A stretch of 64,000 nucleotides of DNA from positions 4,177-68,176 of IMG/VR virus record IMGVR_UViG_3300021256_000100. One strand, 5' to 3'. Position numbers and translations under genes: made by a program. Source of the stretch: a virus (Duplodnaviria; Caudoviricetes). The stretch's first letter is position 1. Each line of letters opens with the position of its first letter. The notes under the pieces are model-generated. The model had not been told where the DNA came from. It saw nothing but the letters and a program-made list of their open reading frames with translations, and ran no database searches. Of the stretch, positions 11,530 to 43,719 are shown in pieces.

Positions 11530-11910
11530 TCAGATTTTTTCCTGAAACCATTTTCTCATTTTATTTGAGTCATTTTTAATTCTTACTTTAGATTTTCCAG
11601 TTTTGCTATCTCGATCGATGTAACTGAAGTTTTTCAGAAAATCTTCAAATTCTTCAATTGTCATTTCGTAATAGAAATTTTCGTTTGCAAATCCGAAGAT
11701 GTAACCTTTGCAATTATCTTCTTTTGCCATCGATGCTTTGGGACTTTTTACTTGCCATCCTTCAACATCTCCGCCTTCGGCGCCTGGTTTGTTATTTCTT
11801 TTGGAAGGAATTCCAGTTAATTCATATCCAACTTTCCATTCAACTTGTTCGCCTTTGTTGTAACCTTCGGGGCATTCGGGACAATTTTTTGTGAAGAATT
11901 TCTGTTTCAT
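11530..11910 (-). CDS. Small putative PD-(D/E)XK-like nuclease (paralog of 13516-13896)
   Basis: CxxC, NKGEQVE...GDVEGWQVKS. Confidence 0.5.
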   Translation of the reverse strand: MKQKFFTKNCPECPEGYNKGEQVEWKVGYELTGIPSKRNNKPGAEGGDVEGWQVKSPKASMAKEDNCKGYIFGFANENFYYEMTIEEFEDFLKNFSYIDRDSKTGKSKVRIKNDSNKMRKWFQEKI

Positions 11911-12978: not shown

Positions 12979-13132
12979 CGTTGTCTTTCCTTTCCTTTTG
13001 ATACATCCATTGTATCATAGCTTGAGTCCTAATAACTGGACTCCTGTCGGAAGCGGCCGCCCGGGCACTAGCTTCGCATTAGAGACCGCTTGCTAGCATA
13101 GCTAGCAGACTCTATCTTCTTCCTTTTGCTTT

Positions 13133-13178
13133 CCGTTTCGCTCTTGCTCATCAGTGTCGGACTCTTACCGACAGACGG
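13133..13178 (-). ncRNA. Type III hammerhead ribozyme HHR1
   Basis: - strand: CCGUC^UGUCGG-UAAGAGU-CCGACA-CUGAUGA-GC-AAGA-GC-GAAA-CGG; canonical core, GUC cleavage triplet. Confidence 0.9.
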
Positions 13179-13199
13179 CTTAGCTGGCTGGGAAGATTT

Positions 13200-13436
13200 T
13201 TAATCTTCCCAGACCTGATGCTCGTAATCGGTTGCAGGCTCTTCGAGGTCTTCGAAGGTCCAGACCCAAGTTTCGGTGTATTCGTGTCCGAAGGATACTT
13301 CGTATTCCCAGGCGGTCTCTTCTTCGCGGTCCCAGTCGTATTCAACGCAAACCTTCTTGACTTCGACTTCTTCCCGACCGTAGCCCATGCGCTCAGCGTA
13401 TTCGTAAACTTGCTCTAAGGTGTAGTACTCAAACAT
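13200..13436 (-). CDS. Highly acidic 78-aa protein between HHR2 and HHR1
   Basis: AAGGAG RBS; 25 D/E versus 5 K/R. Confidence 0.75.
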   Translation of the reverse strand: MFEYYTLEQVYEYAERMGYGREEVEVKKVCVEYDWDREEETAWEYEVSFGHEYTETWVWTFEDLEEPATDYEHQVWED

Positions 13437-13457
13437 TTTCTTTTCTCCTTTTCTGTG

Positions 13458-13505
13458 TGGGTTTCGCTCTTGCTCATCAGCGCCGGACTCTTACCGGCGG
13501 ACCCA
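13458..13505 (-). ncRNA. Type III hammerhead ribozyme HHR2
   Basis: - strand: UGGGUC^CGCCGG-UAAGAGU-CCGGCG-CUGAUGA-GC-AAGA-GC-GAAA-CCCA. Confidence 0.92.
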
Positions 13506-13515
13506 GGCGGGAGGC

Positions 13516-13896
13516 TCAGGCCTTCGCCTGTAGCCATTCCCTCATCTTCTTCGTATCGTTCTTGATTCGAAGCTTTGCCTTGCCTGTCTTGCTATCTTTG
13601 TCAAGGTAGCTAAACTCGGTTAAGAAGGTTTCAAACTCTTCTATTGTCATGGTGTAGAAGAAGTCTGTATCAGCAAATCCGAAGATATAGCCTTTGCAAT
13701 TGTCATTCTCTATCAAGGAAGCTTTCGGACTCTTGACCTGCCAGCCTTCGACGTCGCCGTCTTCTGAGCCCTTTCTGTTGTTAGCTTTGGCAGGTGTTCC
13801 GGTCAGTTCATAGCCAACTTTCCATTCGACTTGCTGACCCTTGTTATAGTTGGTCGGGCAGGTCGGGCAGGTGGTGGTGTAATAGCGTTTTTCCAT
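13516..13896 (-). CDS. Small putative PD-(D/E)XK-like nuclease between HHR3 and HHR2 (paralog of 11530-11910)
   Basis: AAGGA RBS, ATG 13896; CPTC, NKGQQVE...GDVEGWQVKS. Confidence 0.55.
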   Translation of the reverse strand: MEKRYYTTTCPTCPTNYNKGQQVEWKVGYELTGTPAKANNRKGSEDGDVEGWQVKSPKASLIENDNCKGYIFGFADTDFFYTMTIEEFETFLTEFSYLDKDSKTGKAKLRIKNDTKKMREWLQAKA

Positions 13897-13917
13897 CGTA
13901 GCGTTTTCCTTTCTGTT

Positions 13918-13967
13918 TTCCGTTTCGCTCTTGCTCATCGGCGTCGGACTTTTACCGACGGACGGAA
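13918..13967 (-). ncRNA. Type III hammerhead ribozyme HHR3 (U4C core variant)
   Basis: - strand: UUCCGUC^CGUCGG-UAAAAGU-CCGACG-CCGAUGA-GC-AAGA-GC-GAAA-CGGAA. Confidence 0.8.
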
Positions 13968-13972
13968 TCGGC

Positions 13973-14101
13973 TTACTTGCCGATTGCCTTTTTAATTCGA
14001 TTGAAAAGCTTTTTAGCTTCTTTGGCTTCTTTGGCTTCGTTGGCTCTTGTGTTTCTTTTGTTCCATTCTCTGATTTCTTCATAGGTTAAATTTTCGAACA
14101 T
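13973..14101 (-). CDS. 42-aa hypothetical protein, first gene of the ribozyme-punctuated transcript
   Basis: AAGGAAG RBS; promoter TTGACG-N17-TAACAT at 14155-14183. Confidence 0.6.
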   Translation of the reverse strand: MFENLTYEEIREWNKRNTRANEAKEAKEAKKLFNRIKKAIGK

Positions 14102-14384
14102 TTTGGTTACTTCCTTTCTATCTGTGTTTTTGTGTTCTCTTAAGAACTGTCTATATGTTACCATATATTTTTCATGCCGTCAATACCCTTTTTAAACTTT
14201 TTTTCGCTTTTTTCTTGCTTCTCTGTTTTGCACAATAAAACCCGTCACGGGCGGGGGTTGGTTGTGCAAAATGACGGTAGCGGAAAAGTGTGTTTTCGTT
14301 CGGTTAGCCTCGACTAACTCACAGTACGGGGGATGATTTTAGGAAATTCGATTGCATGCAATCGAACGGCCACGGGCCCTGGTA

Positions 14385-14480
14385 ACAAAATACTTCGAAA
14401 TAAAAAAACAAAATACTTCGAAATAAAAAAACAAAATACTTCGAAATAAAATTTTCATCCCCAAAACTTCGAAATTTGAC
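14385..14480. repeat. 23-bp tandem repeat ACAAAATACTTCGAAATAAAAAA, 3 copies plus a degenerate copy
   Basis: Units at 14385, 14408, 14431; partial at 14462. Confidence 0.9.
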
Positions 14481-14504
14481 TTTTACTCCAAATTCGTATA
14501 TACT
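14476..14504 (+). promoter_or_regulatory. Promoter upstream of the virion operon
   Basis: TTGACT-N17-TATACT. Confidence 0.65.
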
Positions 14505-14562
14505 AATGCCAGACAAAGAAAAAAATACGCCAGTATCGACTGGCTTCTACACGAGGCATACA

Positions 14563-15870
14563 ATGAACCGCTTACAACTAAACTTTGCACTCCCCACGAA
14601 AGAAGAACGCGTTGAATTCGCCAGTCGCTATCTGGACACGATTCGCTTCCAACCTACCGAAGACGAACTCGACACGATCGCCAAATATATACTATGGGGA
14701 AAAGATCCAAAAACTGGCCTAAATGGCCGCCAGGAAGGCCTAGAGCTCGAAACCCGCTACAAAACATGGGACGCACAAAAAACAGAATCACTTGACGCCT
14801 TAATCGAAAATCCAAACTTTTCAGAGGCAATACTGCGGAGCCCCTCAAATCCTCCGTCAAAAATTCCTCGCGAAATCTTTTCTCGCTCCGAAGCTCGCCA
14901 AAACGCCCCTTCTCACATCCTCGAAGCTTTGGAAAGTCTTTGGCGCGAAATCGACGAAGCAGAACTCACCATAAACTTCTACGAACTCGCGCACGAAAAA
15001 CGCAAAACAGAACCTCGCGCACAACTTCTAAATCGTTTCTCTTCCCAAGAAATCGAAGTAATCAAACAATCATCCGCAAAACTTCAACCCTATGCCTATC
15101 TCAAATTAAAGCACAAACTCGTAGAATTGCGCCGTGAGCAATATAACTATAAGGATTCGTATAAAGAGCCCCATCTTTCTCAGCCAACTTTTAACTATAT
15201 AGAGAATTTGGGGCCGACCTTCGACACTGATATAAGTGTTTATCCCATAGGAATTTTTGCGCCGGGCGCCCTCTACGAAAAAATTTTTAATGAGGAGAGA
15301 TTCCCAGAGCCAAACGACTTTTCCGAAGAAGAACTAGTCCAACTTTCAAAAATTTTATGGACGCCAACAAATCAAAAAAACTTTTTTGATTTTTGTAATA
15401 GTGATCATTTGTACGAGCTTTTCGGAATGTGGGAAGATTTTAACGAACCAAACGATTCCCCATTTTCTAATATTGGATTCTTTATGCGCGCGGCCTCTAT
15501 GTATAAGAAGCTGGCGAATTTAGATCCGATTTTAGAGGACGTTTTTGAAATGAAGGTTAAGAAAATGCAAAATCAAGACATCGCAAACTTCATTAATAAG
15601 AAATATGGGAAGAAGTATCGCGCCAATTATATTTCTACTTTGTACTGTAAGAAGTGTTTGGGATCAATAGCAAAAGCTGCGAAAAGACATAGAGATGTTT
15701 TGGAAAATATATTTTTCCCTGAAAACTTTAAAAAGTGTAAAGATTGTGGGAAAGTTTTACTTGTAGATGAAGAAAATTTTGTTAGACGAGCAAGGTCTAA
15801 TGATGGATTTTCTCCGCGTTGCAAGAAATGTGAAAAGATTAAAAGGGAGAAAAAAAATGAAGTTAGATGA
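14563..15870 (+). CDS. Hypothetical protein with C-terminal HTH-like segment and Zn finger
   Basis: GAGG RBS before ATG 14563; CKDCG...CKKC. Confidence 0.65.
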   Translation: MNRLQLNFALPTKEERVEFASRYLDTIRFQPTEDELDTIAKYILWGKDPKTGLNGRQEGLELETRYKTWDAQKTESLDALIENPNFSEAILRSPSNPPSKIPREIFSRSEARQNAPSHILEALESLWREIDEAELTINFYELAHEKRKTEPRAQLLNRFSSQEIEVIKQSSAKLQPYAYLKLKHKLVELRREQYNYKDSYKEPHLSQPTFNYIENLGPTFDTDISVYPIGIFAPGALYEKIFNEERFPEPNDFSEEELVQLSKILWTPTNQKNFFDFCNSDHLYELFGMWEDFNEPNDSPFSNIGFFMRAASMYKKLANLDPILEDVFEMKVKKMQNQDIANFINKKYGKKYRANYISTLYCKKCLGSIAKAAKRHRDVLENIFFPENFKKCKDCGKVLLVDEENFVRRARSNDGFSPRCKKCEKIKREKKNEVR

Positions 15871-28260: not shown

Positions 28261-31200
28261 ATGGCAGATTCGAGAGTAATAGAAGTAACATTAAAAGCAG
28301 TTGCTGATATGAAAGATGTTGCTTCTAACGTCGAGCAAATTAAAAGAAGCTTAAATGGATTAGTGTTGCCTAAAGGACTAGAGAGTCAATTTACGAAAGT
28401 TTTTTCTAATTTGGAATCAAATATAGATAAAGCTAGTGATAAATTGGCTGCAGGTTTTAAGTCCAAGGGTGATGCCAGCTCTTATGAAAAAACAACCAAT
28501 CAAATTGTTAAAGACTTAACTACTATGTCTCAGTTAATGGGGCATATAGATACTTCTAAGTTAAACTTTCAGGTAAATGCTGACGCTCTTAAGACTATAA
28601 ACCAAGATATAGCAACCTTGCAGTCAAGACTGGATTCATTAAGAACTGAAAGATTACAAGCATTAGAGACCGTTAGAAATAGTCCTCCTTCTGGCGCTGC
28701 GGCCTGGACGAATTTTTTTGAAGCTATTGATAGAGGCACGGATGGAGTAAACGACGCTGAAAAAGCGTTAAGGGTGCTGCAGCAACAGGTTCAGAAAGCC
28801 ACTTTACATGCTGGAAGCGTAGATAATCTTAACGAGAAGTGGAAAAATTACGCTAATGCGGTAGAAATATGTAAGCAGGCTCTAGGTCTTTATAACGGAG
28901 AAAATAAAGAAGTTGCTTCTCTTGAGGGAGAAATAACTCAGAAGATCAACGAAAGAGAGCGGGCGCAAGAAGACGCTAACGTTAACGGTAGAAGAAGCGT
29001 AGAAGGATTAGTAGATGCTACAAAAGATGCAAATGAAGAAGAAAAGAAATTTGTACAAGGAACTGAGGAATCTGCTAAGGCACAGGCCAACTTAAATTCT
29101 GAACTTGAACAATTTAAAAGTCGAATTTCTTATTTCTTCGGAATGACTAATGCTGTTATGCTCTTCCGGCGCGCATTACGGTCTACTTTTGATACTATTA
29201 AAGATCTTGATGCGGTTATGACTGAGACAGCCGTTGTTACGGAATTTGACGTTGGCGATATGTGGTCTCAGTTGCCAGAATACACCGAAAGAGCGAATAA
29301 GTTAGGTGTTTCTATTCATGACGCCTATGAGGCCGCTACTCTTTATTATCAGCAAGGCTTATCAACTAATGAGGTCATGGCTGTTTCTAATGAAACATTA
29401 AAGATGGCCCGTATTGCGGGACTGGATGCTGCTGAAGCAACCGACCGTATGACGAATGCTATGCGTGGTTTTAACATGGAAATCACCGAGGCGAATGCTC
29501 AGAATGTCAATGATGTGTATTCCAATCTAGCCGCAAAAACTGCATCTAATGTAGATGAGATTTCTACCGCTATGACAAAAGTGGCATCTTTGGCGAATAA
29601 CGCTAATATGTCCTTTGAGAATACTGCGGCTTTTCTTTCTCAGATAATTGAAACAACTCGTGAGTCTGCTGAGACTGCGGGTACCGCTCTTAAGACTGTT
29701 ATTGCTCGTTTTTCTGAAGTTAAGGAGTTATACAGTGAAGGAGAGCTGCTTGGAACTGATGAAGAAGGACAGGAAATTGATGTAAATAAAGTCTCCAAGG
29801 CTTTGCGTACTGCCGGTATTAACCTTAACGAGTATTTGACTGGCATGAAAGGACTTGACGAAATTTTCATGGAGCTTTCTGCCAAGTGGGATAGTTTGGA
29901 TCAGGTACAACAAAGATATATCGCTACGATGGCAGCGGGTTCTCGTCAGCAGTCTCGTTTTATTGCATTAATGCAAGACAACGCACGTATGACTGAATTA
30001 GTTGGCTATGCGACCGATGCGACTGGTGCTTCTCAGCAGCAGTTTGAAAAAACTTTAGATTCTTTAGAGAGTAAGGTTAATCAGTTAAAGAACAGTTGGA
30101 ATACCTTTTTGATGGGTATTGCTAATAGTGATATTATTAAAGGTGCAGTTGATCTTTTAACTAATTTTTTAGATGTCCTCAATAATGTCTCTAAAACTAT
30201 GCCGGGCTTAATGAAATCTTTGGCTAATATAGGCATGCTTTTAGCTGGTTTTAAAATTAGCAGAGCTATTATAGGAAAGATTTTCCCTTCTATTGCGGCC
30301 TCTTTTAAGAAGCAAAGTGCTCTGATGGGGCAAGAAAGCGGAGAGCAAACTGGAACTAGTTGGGTTAGTGGCTTTAGACAAAAATTTAGTTTTAAAAATA
30401 TTTTTGGCGGGCAGGAATTTACTCAAGAACTTAATAATCAACTTAACGGAGCACTTTCTAAGCTTGATCTTGATGATGTAAAAAAGCAAGAAATTCAAAC
30501 TATTTATGAAGAGCAGGGCTTCGAGGCTGCCAATGCTAAAGCGAAGGAATACGGCGCGAATCTAGATCAGTTAGATGCAAAAGCTAAACAGTTTCAAGGA
30601 ACTCAGCAGACAACAACGCTTAGTCTTAGTAAAATGGGCGGTTCCATAATGGCTTTAGGTGGAAGTCTTATGTTGATTTCTAATTTGTTCGACGATGGAA
30701 CAGAAGATGGAGAAAATTTTGCAAAGACTATTTCTAAGATTGGCACTTATATGCTTGGTATTGGTGCGGGAATAACCGTACTTGGAAAAGTGTTATCTTT
30801 TTTTAAGGTGCAAGTTGTTACTTCTGCTTTTCAGGTCGGCACAAGTATTTCTGCAGCAGGTAAGATTGCCCAAGTAGGCTGGGGATGGATAGGTCTCGTA
30901 GTTGCAGGAATTGTCGGGTTAGTAGCTTTGGTGGTAAAATGGTACAAATCCATGAAAGCTAATTCTCCGGAAGGCCAACTTAAAAAGGCTCAAAAAGCCA
31001 CGGAAGAAGCCAAAGAAAAAGCCGAACAAGCAAAACAAGCTTACGATGATTTAAATAGTTCTATCAGCTCTTTAAAAGATCAATACTCTACCTTAGAAAC
31101 TTTAACTAAAGGGACAGAAGAGTGGAGAGATAAGGTTAAAGAGACAAATGAAAAAGTTCTGGAGTTGATTGGCTCTTATAGTGAATTAGCTAATTATGTT

Positions 31201-34200
31201 GACTTTAAAAATGGTGTTTTAACTATAGATTTAGAGGGAGAAGAAGTTTCTCAAATTTTAGATCAATATTGGAAAAATAGCGTTATTTCTTCTAGCGTTG
31301 CTACGTTGGCTGAAGAAAATGAGAAGATTGCTGATATAGAGGTTAAACGTGCGAAAGTTATGGAGAAAACCTATGGTCAGCTTGTCAGTACTGCTGGTTC
31401 TAGAACAGAACGTTATAATGTAACAAATAATAGGGGCCAAAAGCAGAGCATTTGGAGCGGTGAGTCTCGCAATACACAATATGATTTTACAAAAGAACGC
31501 GATTTACTTGCTCGGGCGCTCGCAAAAGATGCCGAGGCATTATCTCAAATAGAAGACGATTTTGGAATAGCAATGAAAGACATCGCTAATCCAGTAAAAT
31601 ATGCTAATGATTTTATAGCTCAGATGGGGCAATCCTCTGACTTTAAGGCTATATCTGGACTTAATTCATTAGAAGGCACAGTTACAGAAAAAAATATAGG
31701 GATTTTAGTAGAATATGGACAAACCTTAGTAGAAGCAAATAAACTTCAAAGCTATTATAATGATCAGATTAAAAATAGTGCTTTAGTAGTTTCTGAATTA
31801 AAGGAAGAAGACAAGGAATATGCTAAAAACTATATGAGTGATAGTAGGATAGATGCTTTAGAAAGGCAGATTTCCAAAGAATTAGATGCTGAAATAGAAG
31901 ATCCTGTAGAACTTGCAGAATTAAGAAAGGATTATGCAAAATTATACCAATATGATAATTATGAAGATTATAAAAAGAATAATGATAATAAAGATGTAAG
32001 TAATACAGATTTAAAAAATGCTTTAATAGGCCAAAGAACTATCGAGCGCGTTTCTACTATGATGGAAAATTTTTCTACTCGATTAGAAAAAATGCCCGAT
32101 CTATTAAAGAGAGTATATGAATCTCCTGAGGGACAAGGACTTACTTTAGCGGACGTTGAAAAAACTACAGAAGAGCTTTATGCTGAAGCGACGAGGAAAC
32201 AGGCGGAAAGTGATTACAATGCTTTTACCTCCTGGTTAAATTCGATGGAAGGCCTAGACGTAATTCAAGCTAGAAACCTGGCGACTGAACGTTTTTCTAG
32301 CGCAAGAGAAACTTTAACCGCAAATGGAATAGACTTATCTTCAGAAGATTTTTTACGAAGCATCCCTGCAGATGCTTTAGATGGCTTTGTTGGACATCTT
32401 ATTTCGGTCATTACTTCCAGTGGCCCGGAAGCCGCGAAGGCTCTTACAGACAGTCTTAATGAGGTTATGACAAATGGAATGATCCCCGAAGAATTTCAAA
32501 GAACCTTTTTAAGTCAACTGAGTCTTTTAAATTGGAATGATTTAGATGCGGTAGAAGGATTTGCTGGCGATCTTAAAGAAATGAGGATAGTAGTAGATCA
32601 GAATAATCCTGCATGGCAAACTTTTATTCAACATTTAAAGGACGGCGCGGACTCTGTTCGTAATATTGATTTGACTTCTTTCATAGAGCAAGCGGATAAA
32701 ATTGGTGCAATAACAAGAAAAATCGAATCTGGAGATCAGGAACGTTCTTTCACAAAAGAAGAATATGAAGCTATTGCTTCAATAGCGCCTGAAATAGCTA
32801 GTCGTTTTAATTTAGATAGTGAAGGTAACTATACATATATTGGCGAATCTATGGAGGGTTTGGCAGAGGCATTAAGAGAGAATACTGTAGCAGTTTTAAA
32901 TGATACTAGAGAGCAGGCAGCTACCGGGAACGCCGTTGGCGAGCTAATGTCCAACTCTAAATTTGCACAAAGGTTAGAAGAAGGCGCGAACGAGGAAGAT
33001 CTCTTAAGTGATTTAATAAATAATGCCGTTCTTCAGGGCATAGATTTATCTAATTTAAAAATAGAGGGATTAAGTAATGATACCCCTGTTAGCCGGCTTT
33101 CTAATGACCAAGTATCTGCTTTTATAGAGCAACTTTTAGCTGTTTTACAAAAATATAATGAAGGTCAATATAATGTTGATGCCGAGAATGCTGCTGTAGG
33201 CCAAGCGCGGCAGCAGTCAATGCAGCAAAATGCTTCCATGGTAAGTGGTGAAAATGGTGACGTTTTTGCGAGTGCTGTAGAGGCTGAAGCATATCAGCTT
33301 GGAATTGCAGAAGAGCATATCGCGGCATACGTCCAACAGCTTCATAGTTTAGATGCTGTAGAGAAACAGAATGCGGCCAATAAATTAGTAAGTCTTGCGA
33401 ATACGCAAAAAGAGATTGAATTATATGATCTTGAAGCGGAAGAAGTTAAAGAACTAGCGGAACAATTAAGAATTAGTAATGAAAGTTTAGATCCTGCTTC
33501 TGCCATGGCTGTAGCAACTTCTCTAACAAGAATGGAGAAAGGCTATGAATCTTTAATAGATACATATGATGAGTGGATTGAGCTAATAGACGATTCTGGT
33601 GGGGTCGTTAAAAAGATGAGTGCGAACCAGGCCAAGACTTTCGCAGAATTAAAGAATTCTATTAAAGAAGTTCTTGCGGTATCCGACGATATACCGGACA
33701 GTTTCCTTAAAAATGCAGAAAATTTAGATTTAATAAAAAGTGCTGCCGATGGCAGTGTAGAAGCTTTAATCGAACTGAGAAAAAATTTAGCTGAGGCAAT
33801 TTATATTGAGGTGAAGCCGCGGTTAGAAACAGAAGAATTTAATGAGGCATATACTCAATTTTATAATTGGCTCATGGCTCAGGATCTTAGTATAGAGGCT
33901 GGAGCATACTTAGATTCGTATCCATATTTGAACGAGTTGTCCAATATGATGGCGCAGTCTAACAAGTTTGCCAATGAGATAACTCGATTGGCAGATTCGC
34001 TTGGCTTTGAGATACAATACGAAACTAAGTATATCACCATGCCATCAATTTCCTATCCTCCTGGTAAGGGAGCGAATGGTGGTATGATGTCTCCAAACAT
34101 CGACTACTCTAATATGGTCCCAAAAGCGATTAAAGTTCCCAAGTTTGTCTCTAAGGGAAACTATACTAGTAATTTTTCTCCTTCCGGTGGAGGTTCTAGA

Positions 34201-36030
34201 AAAGGCTCTGGTGGAGGTGGCGGTAAAGGCTCCAAAGGTTCAGGAGGAGGAGGAAGTTCTGGAAGCGACTCCAAACCATCTTACTGGGAAAACCCCTATG
34301 ACGAACTCTTTAATCTTCAAGAAAAAATAAATGAAGCACTTCGAGTTCGTGAAAAACTTGAACGTCAATATCAAAAACTTCTCAAATCAACTTCCACTTC
34401 TCTTACTCAAATTCGTAAGGGCTATACAGAAATAGTAGATCATCTAAAACAAGAAAAACAATATCAAAAAGAACTCGCAAACGGACGTAAACGACAAATT
34501 AATAATGCAGGTAGTCAAATTTATACGGATGACGACGGCAATAGAAAAACCTATAGCCAGATGGGCGTTACTAAGTATGCTAATTATAATTTTAGTACCG
34601 GACTTTTACAAATTGATTGGGAAGGTCTAGAAGCTATATCGAGAGATTCAAGTCGAGAAGAAGAAGGCAAGGCCGCAGAAGCATATATCAATTATCTACA
34701 GGAATTAGTAGATCAGTTTGAAGAGACAGATGAAACTATAGCTGGAATAGAAGAGGAAATAGAAAATATTCAGCAAGAAGCCATAGATAGCTATATATCC
34801 TTCGAGGAAAGAGTCCAGGAGGCCTTGATTACAAAATATGAAGAACAGATAGATCAATTTGAAAAGCTTTCCGATTCAGTTAAAGACTCGATGGATAAGG
34901 TTATATCTGGAATTCAAGAGCAAATTGACAATGAGCGTCAAGCACGAGAAAACGAGCGGACTGAAGAGGATATAGCAGACAAAGAAGCGAGATTAGCTTA
35001 TTTGCAAAGAGATACCTCCGGCGCGAATACGACTGAAATCTTAAAATTGCAAGATGAACTTTCTAAAGCAAGGGAAGATTATCAAGATTCTTTAATTGAT
35101 CAAGCGATTGATCAAATGAGCAAAGATGCTGACTTGGCGGCCGAGCAGAGAGCTAATCAGATTTCTGTAATGCGAGAGCAGTTAGAGTTATCAAAAGCTA
35201 ATGGAGAGCTTTGGAACGAAGTTTATAGTTTAATTAATAATGCTTTCAATAAAAAGGGTAGCCTTAATATAAACTCTGAACTAATTAAATTACTAAAAGA
35301 GACCGAAGCTTTTGAGGCTATGAGTGCTTTTGGCCAAGATGAATGGATTAAAGAAGTAGTAGAAGCTTTTAATAATGCTCAAAAAGGGCTCACGGCCGGT
35401 AAGGCAGAGAAAGCGGGAGCGCATCAGAACACCGCGCCTACTCCGAAGCCTGCGGCTACAACGAAGCCAACTACAAGCAGTTCTTCTACGAGTTCTTCCA
35501 AGAAGAGTACACCTACTCTAACCGAAGATATAAAAAGACACGTCGCGGCTGCGATTTGGAATGGTAGTTATGGTTGGGGAACCGGGGATACTCGTAGAAA
35601 TCGTTTAACAGAAGTTTTTGGTGCCAACAATGGTATTCAAGCTCTTGTTAATCAAGGCGTAGGCAAGTCTGGAATAAGTCCTGCGGGTTACAGTTATTCA
35701 GATATGCGTAAGAGATTTAAGGGATACAAAACTGGCGGTCTTGCAGATTATACAGGTCTTGCTTGGTTAGATGGTACTAAATCTAAACCAGAGATGGTAC
35801 TTAATGCCAAAGATACAGAGAATCTCATTACATTAAAAGATATTTTGGCGGCTTCTTTAAGAAATACTTCTCAAAGTGGTAATGGCTCTGGAGATAATTA
35901 TTTCGATATAAAGATAGACGCAGAAATCGGATCTGACTATGATGTAGATCAGCTAGCAAATAAGATTAAAAGACAAATTCAACAAGATGGATTGTACAGA
36001 AACGTTAATACAATAAGTCACTTACGATAA
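28261..36030 (+). CDS. Tail tape measure protein (2589 aa)
   Basis: TP901-like core (LKMARIAGLDAAEATDRMTNAMRGF, AGTALKTVIARF), long helical body, hydrophobic segments. Confidence 0.92.
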   Translation: MADSRVIEVTLKAVADMKDVASNVEQIKRSLNGLVLPKGLESQFTKVFSNLESNIDKASDKLAAGFKSKGDASSYEKTTNQIVKDLTTMSQLMGHIDTSKLNFQVNADALKTINQDIATLQSRLDSLRTERLQALETVRNSPPSGAAAWTNFFEAIDRGTDGVNDAEKALRVLQQQVQKATLHAGSVDNLNEKWKNYANAVEICKQALGLYNGENKEVASLEGEITQKINERERAQEDANVNGRRSVEGLVDATKDANEEEKKFVQGTEESAKAQANLNSELEQFKSRISYFFGMTNAVMLFRRALRSTFDTIKDLDAVMTETAVVTEFDVGDMWSQLPEYTERANKLGVSIHDAYEAATLYYQQGLSTNEVMAVSNETLKMARIAGLDAAEATDRMTNAMRGFNMEITEANAQNVNDVYSNLAAKTASNVDEISTAMTKVASLANNANMSFENTAAFLSQIIETTRESAETAGTALKTVIARFSEVKELYSEGELLGTDEEGQEIDVNKVSKALRTAGINLNEYLTGMKGLDEIFMELSAKWDSLDQVQQRYIATMAAGSRQQSRFIALMQDNARMTELVGYATDATGASQQQFEKTLDSLESKVNQLKNSWNTFLMGIANSDIIKGAVDLLTNFLDVLNNVSKTMPGLMKSLANIGMLLAGFKISRAIIGKIFPSIAASFKKQSALMGQESGEQTGTSWVSGFRQKFSFKNIFGGQEFTQELNNQLNGALSKLDLDDVKKQEIQTIYEEQGFEAANAKAKEYGANLDQLDAKAKQFQGTQQTTTLSLSKMGGSIMALGGSLMLISNLFDDGTEDGENFAKTISKIGTYMLGIGAGITVLGKVLSFFKVQVVTSAFQVGTSISAAGKIAQVGWGWIGLVVAGIVGLVALVVKWYKSMKANSPEGQLKKAQKATEEAKEKAEQAKQAYDDLNSSISSLKDQYSTLETLTKGTEEWRDKVKETNEKVLELIGSYSELANYVDFKNGVLTIDLEGEEVSQILDQYWKNSVISSSVATLAEENEKIADIEVKRAKVMEKTYGQLVSTAGSRTERYNVTNNRGQKQSIWSGESRNTQYDFTKERDLLARALAKDAEALSQIEDDFGIAMKDIANPVKYANDFIAQMGQSSDFKAISGLNSLEGTVTEKNIGILVEYGQTLVEANKLQSYYNDQIKNSALVVSELKEEDKEYAKNYMSDSRIDALERQISKELDAEIEDPVELAELRKDYAKLYQYDNYEDYKKNNDNKDVSNTDLKNALIGQRTIERVSTMMENFSTRLEKMPDLLKRVYESPEGQGLTLADVEKTTEELYAEATRKQAESDYNAFTSWLNSMEGLDVIQARNLATERFSSARETLTANGIDLSSEDFLRSIPADALDGFVGHLISVITSSGPEAAKALTDSLNEVMTNGMIPEEFQRTFLSQLSLLNWNDLDAVEGFAGDLKEMRIVVDQNNPAWQTFIQHLKDGADSVRNIDLTSFIEQADKIGAITRKIESGDQERSFTKEEYEAIASIAPEIASRFNLDSEGNYTYIGESMEGLAEALRENTVAVLNDTREQAATGNAVGELMSNSKFAQRLEEGANEEDLLSDLINNAVLQGIDLSNLKIEGLSNDTPVSRLSNDQVSAFIEQLLAVLQKYNEGQYNVDAENAAVGQARQQSMQQNASMVSGENGDVFASAVEAEAYQLGIAEEHIAAYVQQLHSLDAVEKQNAANKLVSLANTQKEIELYDLEAEEVKELAEQLRISNESLDPASAMAVATSLTRMEKGYESLIDTYDEWIELIDDSGGVVKKMSANQAKTFAELKNSIKEVLAVSDDIPDSFLKNAENLDLIKSAADGSVEALIELRKNLAEAIYIEVKPRLETEEFNEAYTQFYNWLMAQDLSIEAGAYLDSYPYLNELSNMMAQSNKFANEITRLADSLGFEIQYETKYITMPSISYPPGKGANGGMMSPNIDYSNMVPKAIKVPKFVSKGNYTSNFSPSGGGSRKGSGGGGGKGSKGSGGGGSSGSDSKPSYWENPYDELFNLQEKINEALRVREKLERQYQKLLKSTSTSLTQIRKGYTEIVDHLKQEKQYQKELANGRKRQINNAGSQIYTDDDGNRKTYSQMGVTKYANYNFSTGLLQIDWEGLEAISRDSSREEEGKAAEAYINYLQELVDQFEETDETIAGIEEEIENIQQEAIDSYISFEERVQEALITKYEEQIDQFEKLSDSVKDSMDKVISGIQEQIDNERQARENERTEEDIADKEARLAYLQRDTSGANTTEILKLQDELSKAREDYQDSLIDQAIDQMSKDADLAAEQRANQISVMREQLELSKANGELWNEVYSLINNAFNKKGSLNINSELIKLLKETEAFEAMSAFGQDEWIKEVVEAFNNAQKGLTAGKAEKAGAHQNTAPTPKPAATTKPTTSSSSTSSSKKSTPTLTEDIKRHVAAAIWNGSYGWGTGDTRRNRLTEVFGANNGIQALVNQGVGKSGISPAGYSYSDMRKRFKGYKTGGLADYTGLAWLDGTKSKPEMVLNAKDTENLITLKDILAASLRNTSQSGNGSGDNYFDIKIDAEIGSDYDVDQLANKIKRQIQQDGLYRNVNTISHLR

Positions 36031-37053: not shown

Positions 37054-43719
<6,666 letters not shown>

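Follow-up and report, generated by a model that had tools for sequence, protein, structure and literature searches.

Three hammerhead ribozymes between small early genes of an uncultured gut phage and their plausible role in transcript processing

What might hammerhead ribozymes be doing between the small early genes of a phage? The question is raised by a stretch of 64,000 nucleotides (nt), hereafter the window, taken from an uncultured phage record (IMGVR_UViG_3300021256_000100; 68 kb, estimated to be 59% complete). Three hammerhead motifs, which we call HH1, HH2 and HH3, lie there within 835 nt on one strand, in intergenic gaps, in a virus record that carries terminase and portal genes on the + strand. 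The role of hammerheads in bacteria and phages is still called largely elusive (PMC6765202), and this locus sharpens the question without answering it. That HH1-HH3 are genuine type III hammerheads under selection on structure is well supported by the sequence comparisons given below, and a processing role for them at this locus is plausible. The locus is a clean further example of an architecture known since 2011; the new part is the comparative series of relatives.

Three hammerheads and their subfamily

In every copy the parts follow in the same order from 5' to 3': a stem III strand that ends in GU, C17, stem I, the 7-nt core, stem II, GAAA and the second strand of stem III (coordinates in Table 1). 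All three have a GUC site, a GC-rich stem I of 6 base pairs (bp) closed by a 7-nt loop, and a stem II of 2 bp (G10.1-C11.1 and C10.2-G11.2) under an AAGA loop. The open end is stem III, and stems I and II are hairpin-closed, which is the type III topology. The core C3-U4-G5-A6-N7-G8-A9 is complete in HH1 and HH2; HH3 differs from it only at U4, where it has a C (position 13940). A sequence-only reading of this stretch had given CUGAUGA as the core of each copy, which is right for HH1 and HH2 and wrong for HH3. The other conserved elements (G12-A13-A14, the pairs A15.1-U16.1 and G10.1-C11.1, and a residue other than G at 17) are present in all three copies, and their columns are invariant in the 44 family members described below. 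Loop I reads U-A-N-N-A-G-U, with positions 1, 2, 5 and 7 invariant in the family. A Watson-Crick pseudoknot between loops I and II is impossible, and the constancy of loop I suggests a tertiary role, namely a putative loop I-loop II contact.

Chance resemblance was assessed in two ways. An 18-mer common to the copies occurs three times, against 0.03 occurrences expected. A generic type III descriptor, composed of the core, three helices and GAAA and independent of the sequence of the subfamily, gave three matches on both strands of the window, exactly HH1-HH3; in 100 random 64-kb sequences of the same dinucleotide make-up it gave a mean of 0.06 matches and a maximum of one. The three type III hammerheads that the sequence-only reading had placed here are thus confirmed at their positions, and its predicted cut sites, with predicted pieces of 461 nt and 326 nt between them, agree with the C17 residues. 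Its distance of 26-27 nt from HH2 and HH3 to a start codon is also correct when counted from A15.1. Measured from the last stem III pair, the ATG lies 21 nt away in both cases (ATG at 13896 for HH3 and at 13436 for HH2), and HH1 precedes no open reading frame (ORF).

Table 1. Features of the ribozyme-containing unit, in order of transcription (aa, amino acids; pI, isoelectric point; L105, L111 and L116 are loci of related phages)
Feature	Coordinates	Strand	Remarks
Promoter of the unit	14155-14183	-	TTGACG-17-TAACAT, TG before the -10 element, 9/12 matches; same position in L111 and L116
ORF A, 42 aa, basic, pI 9.9	13973-14101	-	Conserved in L111; absent from L105 and L116
7-bp hairpin over ORF A stop codon	13966-13985	-	-12.9 kcal/mol, z -3.2
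HH3, type III hammerhead	13918-13967	-	C17 at 13961, predicted cut 13961/13960; core CCGAUGA; stem III 6 bp
ORF B, 126 aa, conserved phage protein family	13516-13896	-	Start fixed by the directly upstream promoter of relatives
Hairpin over ORF B stop codon, just before HH2	13509-13541	-	-22.2 kcal/mol, z -2.8
HH2, type III hammerhead	13458-13505	-	C17 at 13500, predicted cut 13500/13499; canonical core; stem III 5 bp
ORF C, 78 aa, pI 4.05, 25 D+E versus 5 K+R	13200-13436	-	No known family
11-bp hairpin over ORF C stop codon	13188-13212	-	13 nt before the HH1 cut; -21 kcal/mol, z -5.1, 0/200 shuffles as stable
HH1, type III hammerhead	13133-13178	-	C17 at 13174, predicted cut 13174/13173; canonical core; stem III 4 bp
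A-rich, Shine-Dalgarno-like leader remnant, 24 nt, after HH1	13109-13132	-	No start codon at a usable distance

The 18-mer also led to a larger set. It was found in 39 viral contigs, nearly all of them alike in architecture. A scan of genome contigs gave 59 stretches, only about five of which are hammerheads (in Caproicibacter, Paludibacteraceae, Prevotellaceae and two Clostridia metagenome-assembled genomes); the remaining matches are coding sequence that spells the same letters by accident, and these were discarded. The viral contigs with the 18-mer, the copies from relatives and those from bacterial metagenome-assembled genomes together provide 44 distinct members of a phage subfamily with a 6-bp stem I, a 2-bp stem II and an AAGA loop. 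The sole member seen with another loop II, at L118:3394-3451, has 5 nt (UAGGA) on its 2-bp stem II.

Covariation in this set follows the hammerhead stems. In the 27 distinct sequences that align without gaps, 95.8% of the stem cells hold standard pairs, a share that falls to 24-43% if the 3' strands are shifted by 1-3 columns; 8 of the 14 pairs show changes on both sides, four in stem I and four in stem III, and the alignment reaches a covariation score of 0.378, shuffled alignments 0.089. With all 44 distinct sequences, 93.3% of the stem cells are paired. Orthologous copies likewise differ by compensatory pairs, as in the first pair of stem I, which is U-A in HH1 of the window and C-G in L105. 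The selection on structure proposed from the window's three copies is borne out by these figures.

A covariance model (R1) built from the 27-sequence alignment recovers three copies from the window, and also three from the whole 68-kb record, with scores of 78.2 bits for HH3, 75.8 for HH2 and 72.7 for HH1. Searched with Rfam at gathering thresholds, the window yields one tRNA and no hammerhead, and eight related loci yield no hammerhead. At relaxed thresholds HH1 matches Hammerhead_3 (RF00008) with 25.9 bits (E 0.008) against a gathering cut-off of 48.5, HH2 matches the type II model weakly (21.9 bits), and HH3 has no hammerhead match. A match of HH3 to the alphaproteobacterial L2 leader (26.3 bits against a cut-off of 37.8) was rejected as spurious. 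The Infernal search with Rfam hammerhead models that the sequence-only reading had recommended therefore leaves HH1-HH3 all below the gathering score, which is a curated cut-off and not a biochemical criterion. With RF00008 the window copies share the open stem III, the conserved core, the GUC site and the hairpin-closed stems I and II; they differ in falling short of its gathering score, in pairing a 2-bp stem II under a 4-nt loop with a 6-bp stem I, and, for one copy, in the change of U4 to C (U4C), which is otherwise reported from a viroid (cited in PMC3088659). Since the entire subfamily falls below the Rfam threshold, annotations of phage genomes list too few of these ribozymes.

The U4C change recurs. 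It is present in four members that are otherwise intact, namely HH3 of the window, L033:7598-7654, L079:6751-6807 and L116:1455-1511; the HH3 ortholog in L111, a 94% relative, carries U4. A second variant, U7A (CUGAAGA), is seen in copies from L105, L116 and L118. These recurring core variants may represent a tuning of the cleavage rate.

The transcription unit and a possible processing scheme

The unit runs in the order promoter, ORF A, HH3, ORF B, HH2, ORF C, HH1 and leader remnant. Further along the - strand, from 12763 to 9074, there are about ten near-perfect promoters of the form TTGACA-17-TGnTATAAT, approximately one per small gene, and we read this promoter array, from its sequence layout, as an early-gene array of promoter-gene cassettes. 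The ribozyme stretch is the only part of the early array without internal promoters. In the promoter listing of the window no consensus promoter appears on the - strand between 14155 and 12763, in agreement with the earlier proposal of a promoter-less ribozyme stretch headed by the promoter at 14155-14183, which is weaker than those of the array, and no terminator-like site is listed on that strand from 14240 to 12030. We note that relatives share the punctuation seen after HH1, at about 13040-13108, which consists of a short palindromic hairpin, GCCCGGGC and CCGCTTCC.

The sequences that flank the cut sites are similar throughout the family. In the window every cut is preceded by a stable hairpin over the stop codon of the upstream ORF. 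Across 42 family members the 50 nt that end at the cut have a mean z of -2.76, and 27 of the 42 are below -2; random windows of the same loci have a mean z of -0.53, with 12% below -2. On the other side, a Shine-Dalgarno sequence and a start codon at most 32 nt downstream are found in 28 of the 44 members by a strict script, and about ten further members have the Shine-Dalgarno inside or abutting the 3' strand of stem III. The hairpin before the cut, taken together with the downstream Shine-Dalgarno and start codon, makes the subfamily a 5'-leader element of the downstream gene. In L002, L004, L010, L020, L024, L025, L031 and L037 the 3' strand of a 6-bp stem III holds most of the Shine-Dalgarno (GGAGG), with the ATG 7 nt on. 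In members of this kind, the ribosome-binding site could become exposed once the ribozyme has cut and the 5' strand has left, which would give cleavage-activated translation.

We consider it probable that self-cleavage of one early transcript yields single-gene mRNAs, each carrying a constant, folded 5' leader and a 3' end shielded by a hairpin. The sequences show the motif, how it is conserved and covaries, where it lies and in which relatives it is present; from these we infer the cleavage itself and its effects on stability and translation. The scheme would proceed as follows. One RNA, the first leftward early unit, would start at the promoter at 14183-14155 and contain ORF A, HH3, ORF B, HH2, ORF C and HH1. 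Each ribozyme would fold once its 3' stem III strand emerges and would cut after C17, whereupon the short stem III (4-6 bp) would dissociate. The upstream piece would then end in a 2',3'-cyclic phosphate a few nt past the stop-codon hairpin, and the downstream piece would have its 5'-OH exactly where the GC-rich stem I hairpin begins, with the ribosome-binding site about 40 nt on. The resulting single-gene mRNAs would be insulated from their neighbours and would be poor substrates for 5'-monophosphate-dependent decay. The cut at HH1 would form a 3' end and keep read-through from the unit out of the promoter-led cassettes that follow. 5'-monophosphate-dependent RNase E and RNase J1 depend on access to the 5' end, so both of these ends, the one past a hairpin and the one at a hairpin's foot, should slow decay; a constant leader should insulate translation from the upstream context.

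This scheme has clear precedents. Perreault et al. (2011) described multiple hammerheads that often flank single genes or short gene blocks in prophages, with varying gene identities and commonly with a 2-bp stem II, and suggested that processing may turn long phage transcripts into single-gene mRNAs (PMC3088659). Their arrays from C. scindens, A. caulinodans and A. tumefaciens, with two- and three-ribozyme transcripts, cleave in vitro, and that of A. tumefaciens also in vivo (PMC3088659). A 2019 review repeats the processing hypothesis and regards the biology as still unsettled (PMC6765202). The present locus resembles those arrays in having its hammerheads grouped on one strand in a span of 1-2 kb, in intergenic positions, flanking single small genes of phage origin whose identities vary, often with a 2-bp stem II, and in the proposed processing into single-gene mRNAs. 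The arrays of Perreault et al. come from prophages of cultured bacteria and were cleaved experimentally, whereas the present locus is on an uncultured gut phage contig known from sequence alone; it goes beyond them in offering a comparative series of 0-3 copies and in having neighbouring genes that each carry their own consensus promoter. The ORF-ribozyme-ORF layout, which the sequence-only reading had taken to be uncharacterised in phage, was in fact described in that work. An engineered parallel is RiboJ, a hammerhead leader with which transcript in E. coli rises about 2-fold and protein 2-10-fold (PMC6206723). There too a hammerhead lies directly upstream of the ribosome-binding site, strips the upstream context and leaves a structured 5' end; RiboJ is, however, synthetic, built from a plant satellite RNA ribozyme by modification and with an added hairpin, and the likeness is one of mode of action, not of membership.

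Relatives and competing explanations

Comparative evidence comes from 18 loci (L102-L119) around eight ORF B homologs, which were searched with model R1. With blastn, the segment 12000-15000 had no match in the deposited phage collection, and no relative was confirmed when viral contigs were searched with back-translated patterns of ORF B and ORF C. The locus is syntenic, with ORF B first or nearly first in the early array and divergent from a gene of about 440 aa. In L105 and L116 the promoter leads directly into ORF B.

The number of ribozymes at this place varies from none to three. L102-L104 and L112-L113 have no hammerhead near ORF B. One hammerhead is present in L108-L110 and L114-L115, after ORF B, and is followed by unrelated 45-aa or 44-aa ORFs. 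Two are present in four arrangements: L105-L107, which are without ORF A and HH3, have one after ORF B and one after ORF C; L111, whose ORF B is 94% identical, has one before and one after ORF B and none after ORF C; L116-L117 have ORF B, a ribozyme with U4C, an unrelated acidic 61-aa ORF, a second ribozyme and a leader remnant; and L118-L119 have an unrelated 53-aa ORF, a ribozyme, ORF B and a second ribozyme. The window, with three, is at the far end of the series. We considered whether the 53-aa ORF of L118 could be ORF A, which has the same position, and rejected this, as the two are unrelated. When the window (or L116) is aligned with L111, HH1 and the leader remnant stand out as a clean indel of about 70 nt, and the leader remnant of the window resembles the leader after the second L111 hammerhead. 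Judged from these sequences, the series shows small-ORF cassettes apparently exchanged at ribozyme boundaries, and the suggestion that related contigs keep the ribozymes with different cargo ORFs is borne out by the R1 search. One lineage with zero, one, two or three ribozymes at one place, together with a promoter-driven paralogue of ORF B that has no ribozyme, provides a set of natural variants. The question of function is sharpened further by the recurring, weakening U4C change and by the consistent layout of hairpin, cut, stem I hairpin and ribosome-binding site.

Contigs from other gut metagenomes match mainly the ribozymes of about 45 nt, with unrelated flanks. They show that the motif is widespread in gut metagenomes and say nothing on cleavage, as contigs cannot show RNA ends. 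Among RNA runs, none is listed for the stretch. Two RNA runs of the source sample contain next to none of the words of the stretch, and none of the contigs of one of these runs was placed on it. We also note a metagenome contig of run X6 that joins 13178 to 13508 with one extra T and might represent a relative without ORF C and one ribozyme. This junction is not relied on, having 28 nt on its short side and lying inside near-identical ribozyme copies.

Several points weigh against the processing scheme. HH3 may cut slowly owing to U4C, a change that lowers in vitro activity considerably, yet suffices in a viroid in vivo (PMC3088659). Minimum free energy folding of single sequences gives mainly the stem I hairpin and not the hammerhead fold, a failure that is usual with short stems and that we do not take as evidence. 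Stem II is invariant in the set and so gains no support from covariation, partly because the collecting pattern covers stem II. Loci with no hammerhead or one hammerhead show that the ribozymes are dispensable. Finally, the argued benefit to stability and insulation presupposes that the RNA-decay rules of E. coli and Bacillus apply in the host of this phage.

The copy-number series also bears on the strongest competing explanation, that the hammerhead and its short A-rich leader are a recombination-prone repeat that travels with small early ORFs as a passenger, cleaving with neutral effect. Copy numbers of 0, 1, 2 or 3 at an orthologous locus, the clean 70-nt indel relative to L111, and the gut metagenome contigs that match the ribozyme only are what such a repeat would produce, and a conversion between copies is suggested by the second L111 hammerhead, whose stems are those of the first. 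Neutral decay, however, is not expected to leave compensatory pairing and an intact core over 44 distinct copies, nor would it account for the hairpin before the cut and the place upstream of a ribosome-binding site, both of which recur across unrelated loci. We regard the passenger explanation as unlikely, though it deserves more weight than the two that follow.

A more elaborate possibility is that a host RtcB-type ligase joins the 461-nt and 326-nt pieces into translatable circular mRNAs, with mismatched stem III halves blocking re-cleavage. The 5'-OH and 2',3'-cyclic phosphate ends expected of hammerhead cleavage suit RtcB chemically. Neighbouring copies in the window do differ in stem III, such that the junction would pair at only two positions. 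In L111, by contrast, the two consecutive hammerheads share stem III, so alternating stems are not conserved, and the layout of hairpin then cut, and cut then ribosome-binding site, suits linear mRNAs. Spliced or circular products were sought in such arrays and none was detected (Perreault et al. 2011, PMC3088659). We consider circular mRNAs very improbable here; it is more likely that the hammerheads stand in for per-gene promoters and mark the boundaries of exchanged small early-gene cassettes. Retrozymes, which occur in plants and animals and to whose plant form the sequence-only reading had compared the locus, share with it hammerheads in direct repeats that bracket an RNA of a few hundred nt (PMC4918200). 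The resemblance is superficial: retrozymes are eukaryotic non-coding retroelements with long terminal repeats, primer-binding and polypurine tracts and proven circular RNA (PMC4918200), whereas the window is a phage contig with repeats of about 48 nt in which the bracketed RNAs carry ORFs with ribosome-binding sites.

In the least credible explanation, the repeat of about 48 nt would act at the DNA level, bind a protein or form a terminator-like hairpin, and would only resemble a hammerhead. The sub-threshold Rfam scores, the missing hammerhead match for HH3 and the stem I hairpin favoured in folding would fit this. We regard it as very improbable in view of the invariant hammerhead positions, all of which are present three times on one strand with correct order and spacing, the covariation of stem III across halves that are 40 nt apart, and the absence of a U-tract after the hairpin.

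Cargo proteins and neighbouring genes

ORFs A, B and C have no Pfam family and no PHROGs family. A protein database search gave at least 160 homologs of ORF B, 60-94% identical and none of them a named protein, on contigs of up to 152 kb. The paralogue mentioned above lies at 11530-11910 on the - strand; it is 69% identical and has its own consensus promoter. A longer, 188-aa frame at 13516-14082, which would run through HH3, was rejected as a gene, as relatives have a promoter and a ribosome-binding site directly before the ATG that matches 13896. The invariant residues of the ORF B family include C10, P11, P14, E24, D48, Q53 and K55. Its AlphaFold model is confident (predicted local distance difference test, pLDDT, 88; predicted template modelling score, pTM, 0.83), and Foldseek against the PDB gave no match with it. 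An exhaustive structure aligner placed mostly PD-(D/E)xK endonucleases among the best rows, namely NhoI (Z 5.9), HhaI, I-Ssp6803I, HinP1I, MspI, MutH and Hjc; all rows are below Z 7-8, a level that the tool calls common for unmatched models. E24, D48, Q53 and K55 could form a D...QxK variant of the PD-(D/E)xK active site, a motif known from HinP1I. The nuclease-like character proposed for ORF B in the sequence-only reading is thus echoed by weak fold matches and finds nothing in Pfam or PHROGs; we treat it as a weak lead from the model, not as a finding.

Just upstream of the promoter of the unit, at 14240-14252 on the - strand, there is a terminator-like hairpin with a U-run that is conserved in L111 and L116. 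It sits in the divergent region between the early array and a + strand gene at 14476-15870. This gene, which encodes a protein of 464 aa and points away from the ribozyme unit, keeps its place in all relatives (441-452 aa); its PHROG matches are weak and mostly C-terminal (Lar-like, sigma factor and endonuclease VII; E about 1e-4 to 1e-2). Farther along the + strand, two very long ORFs at 28261-36030 and 37054-43719 (2589 and 2221 aa) occupy the structural region.

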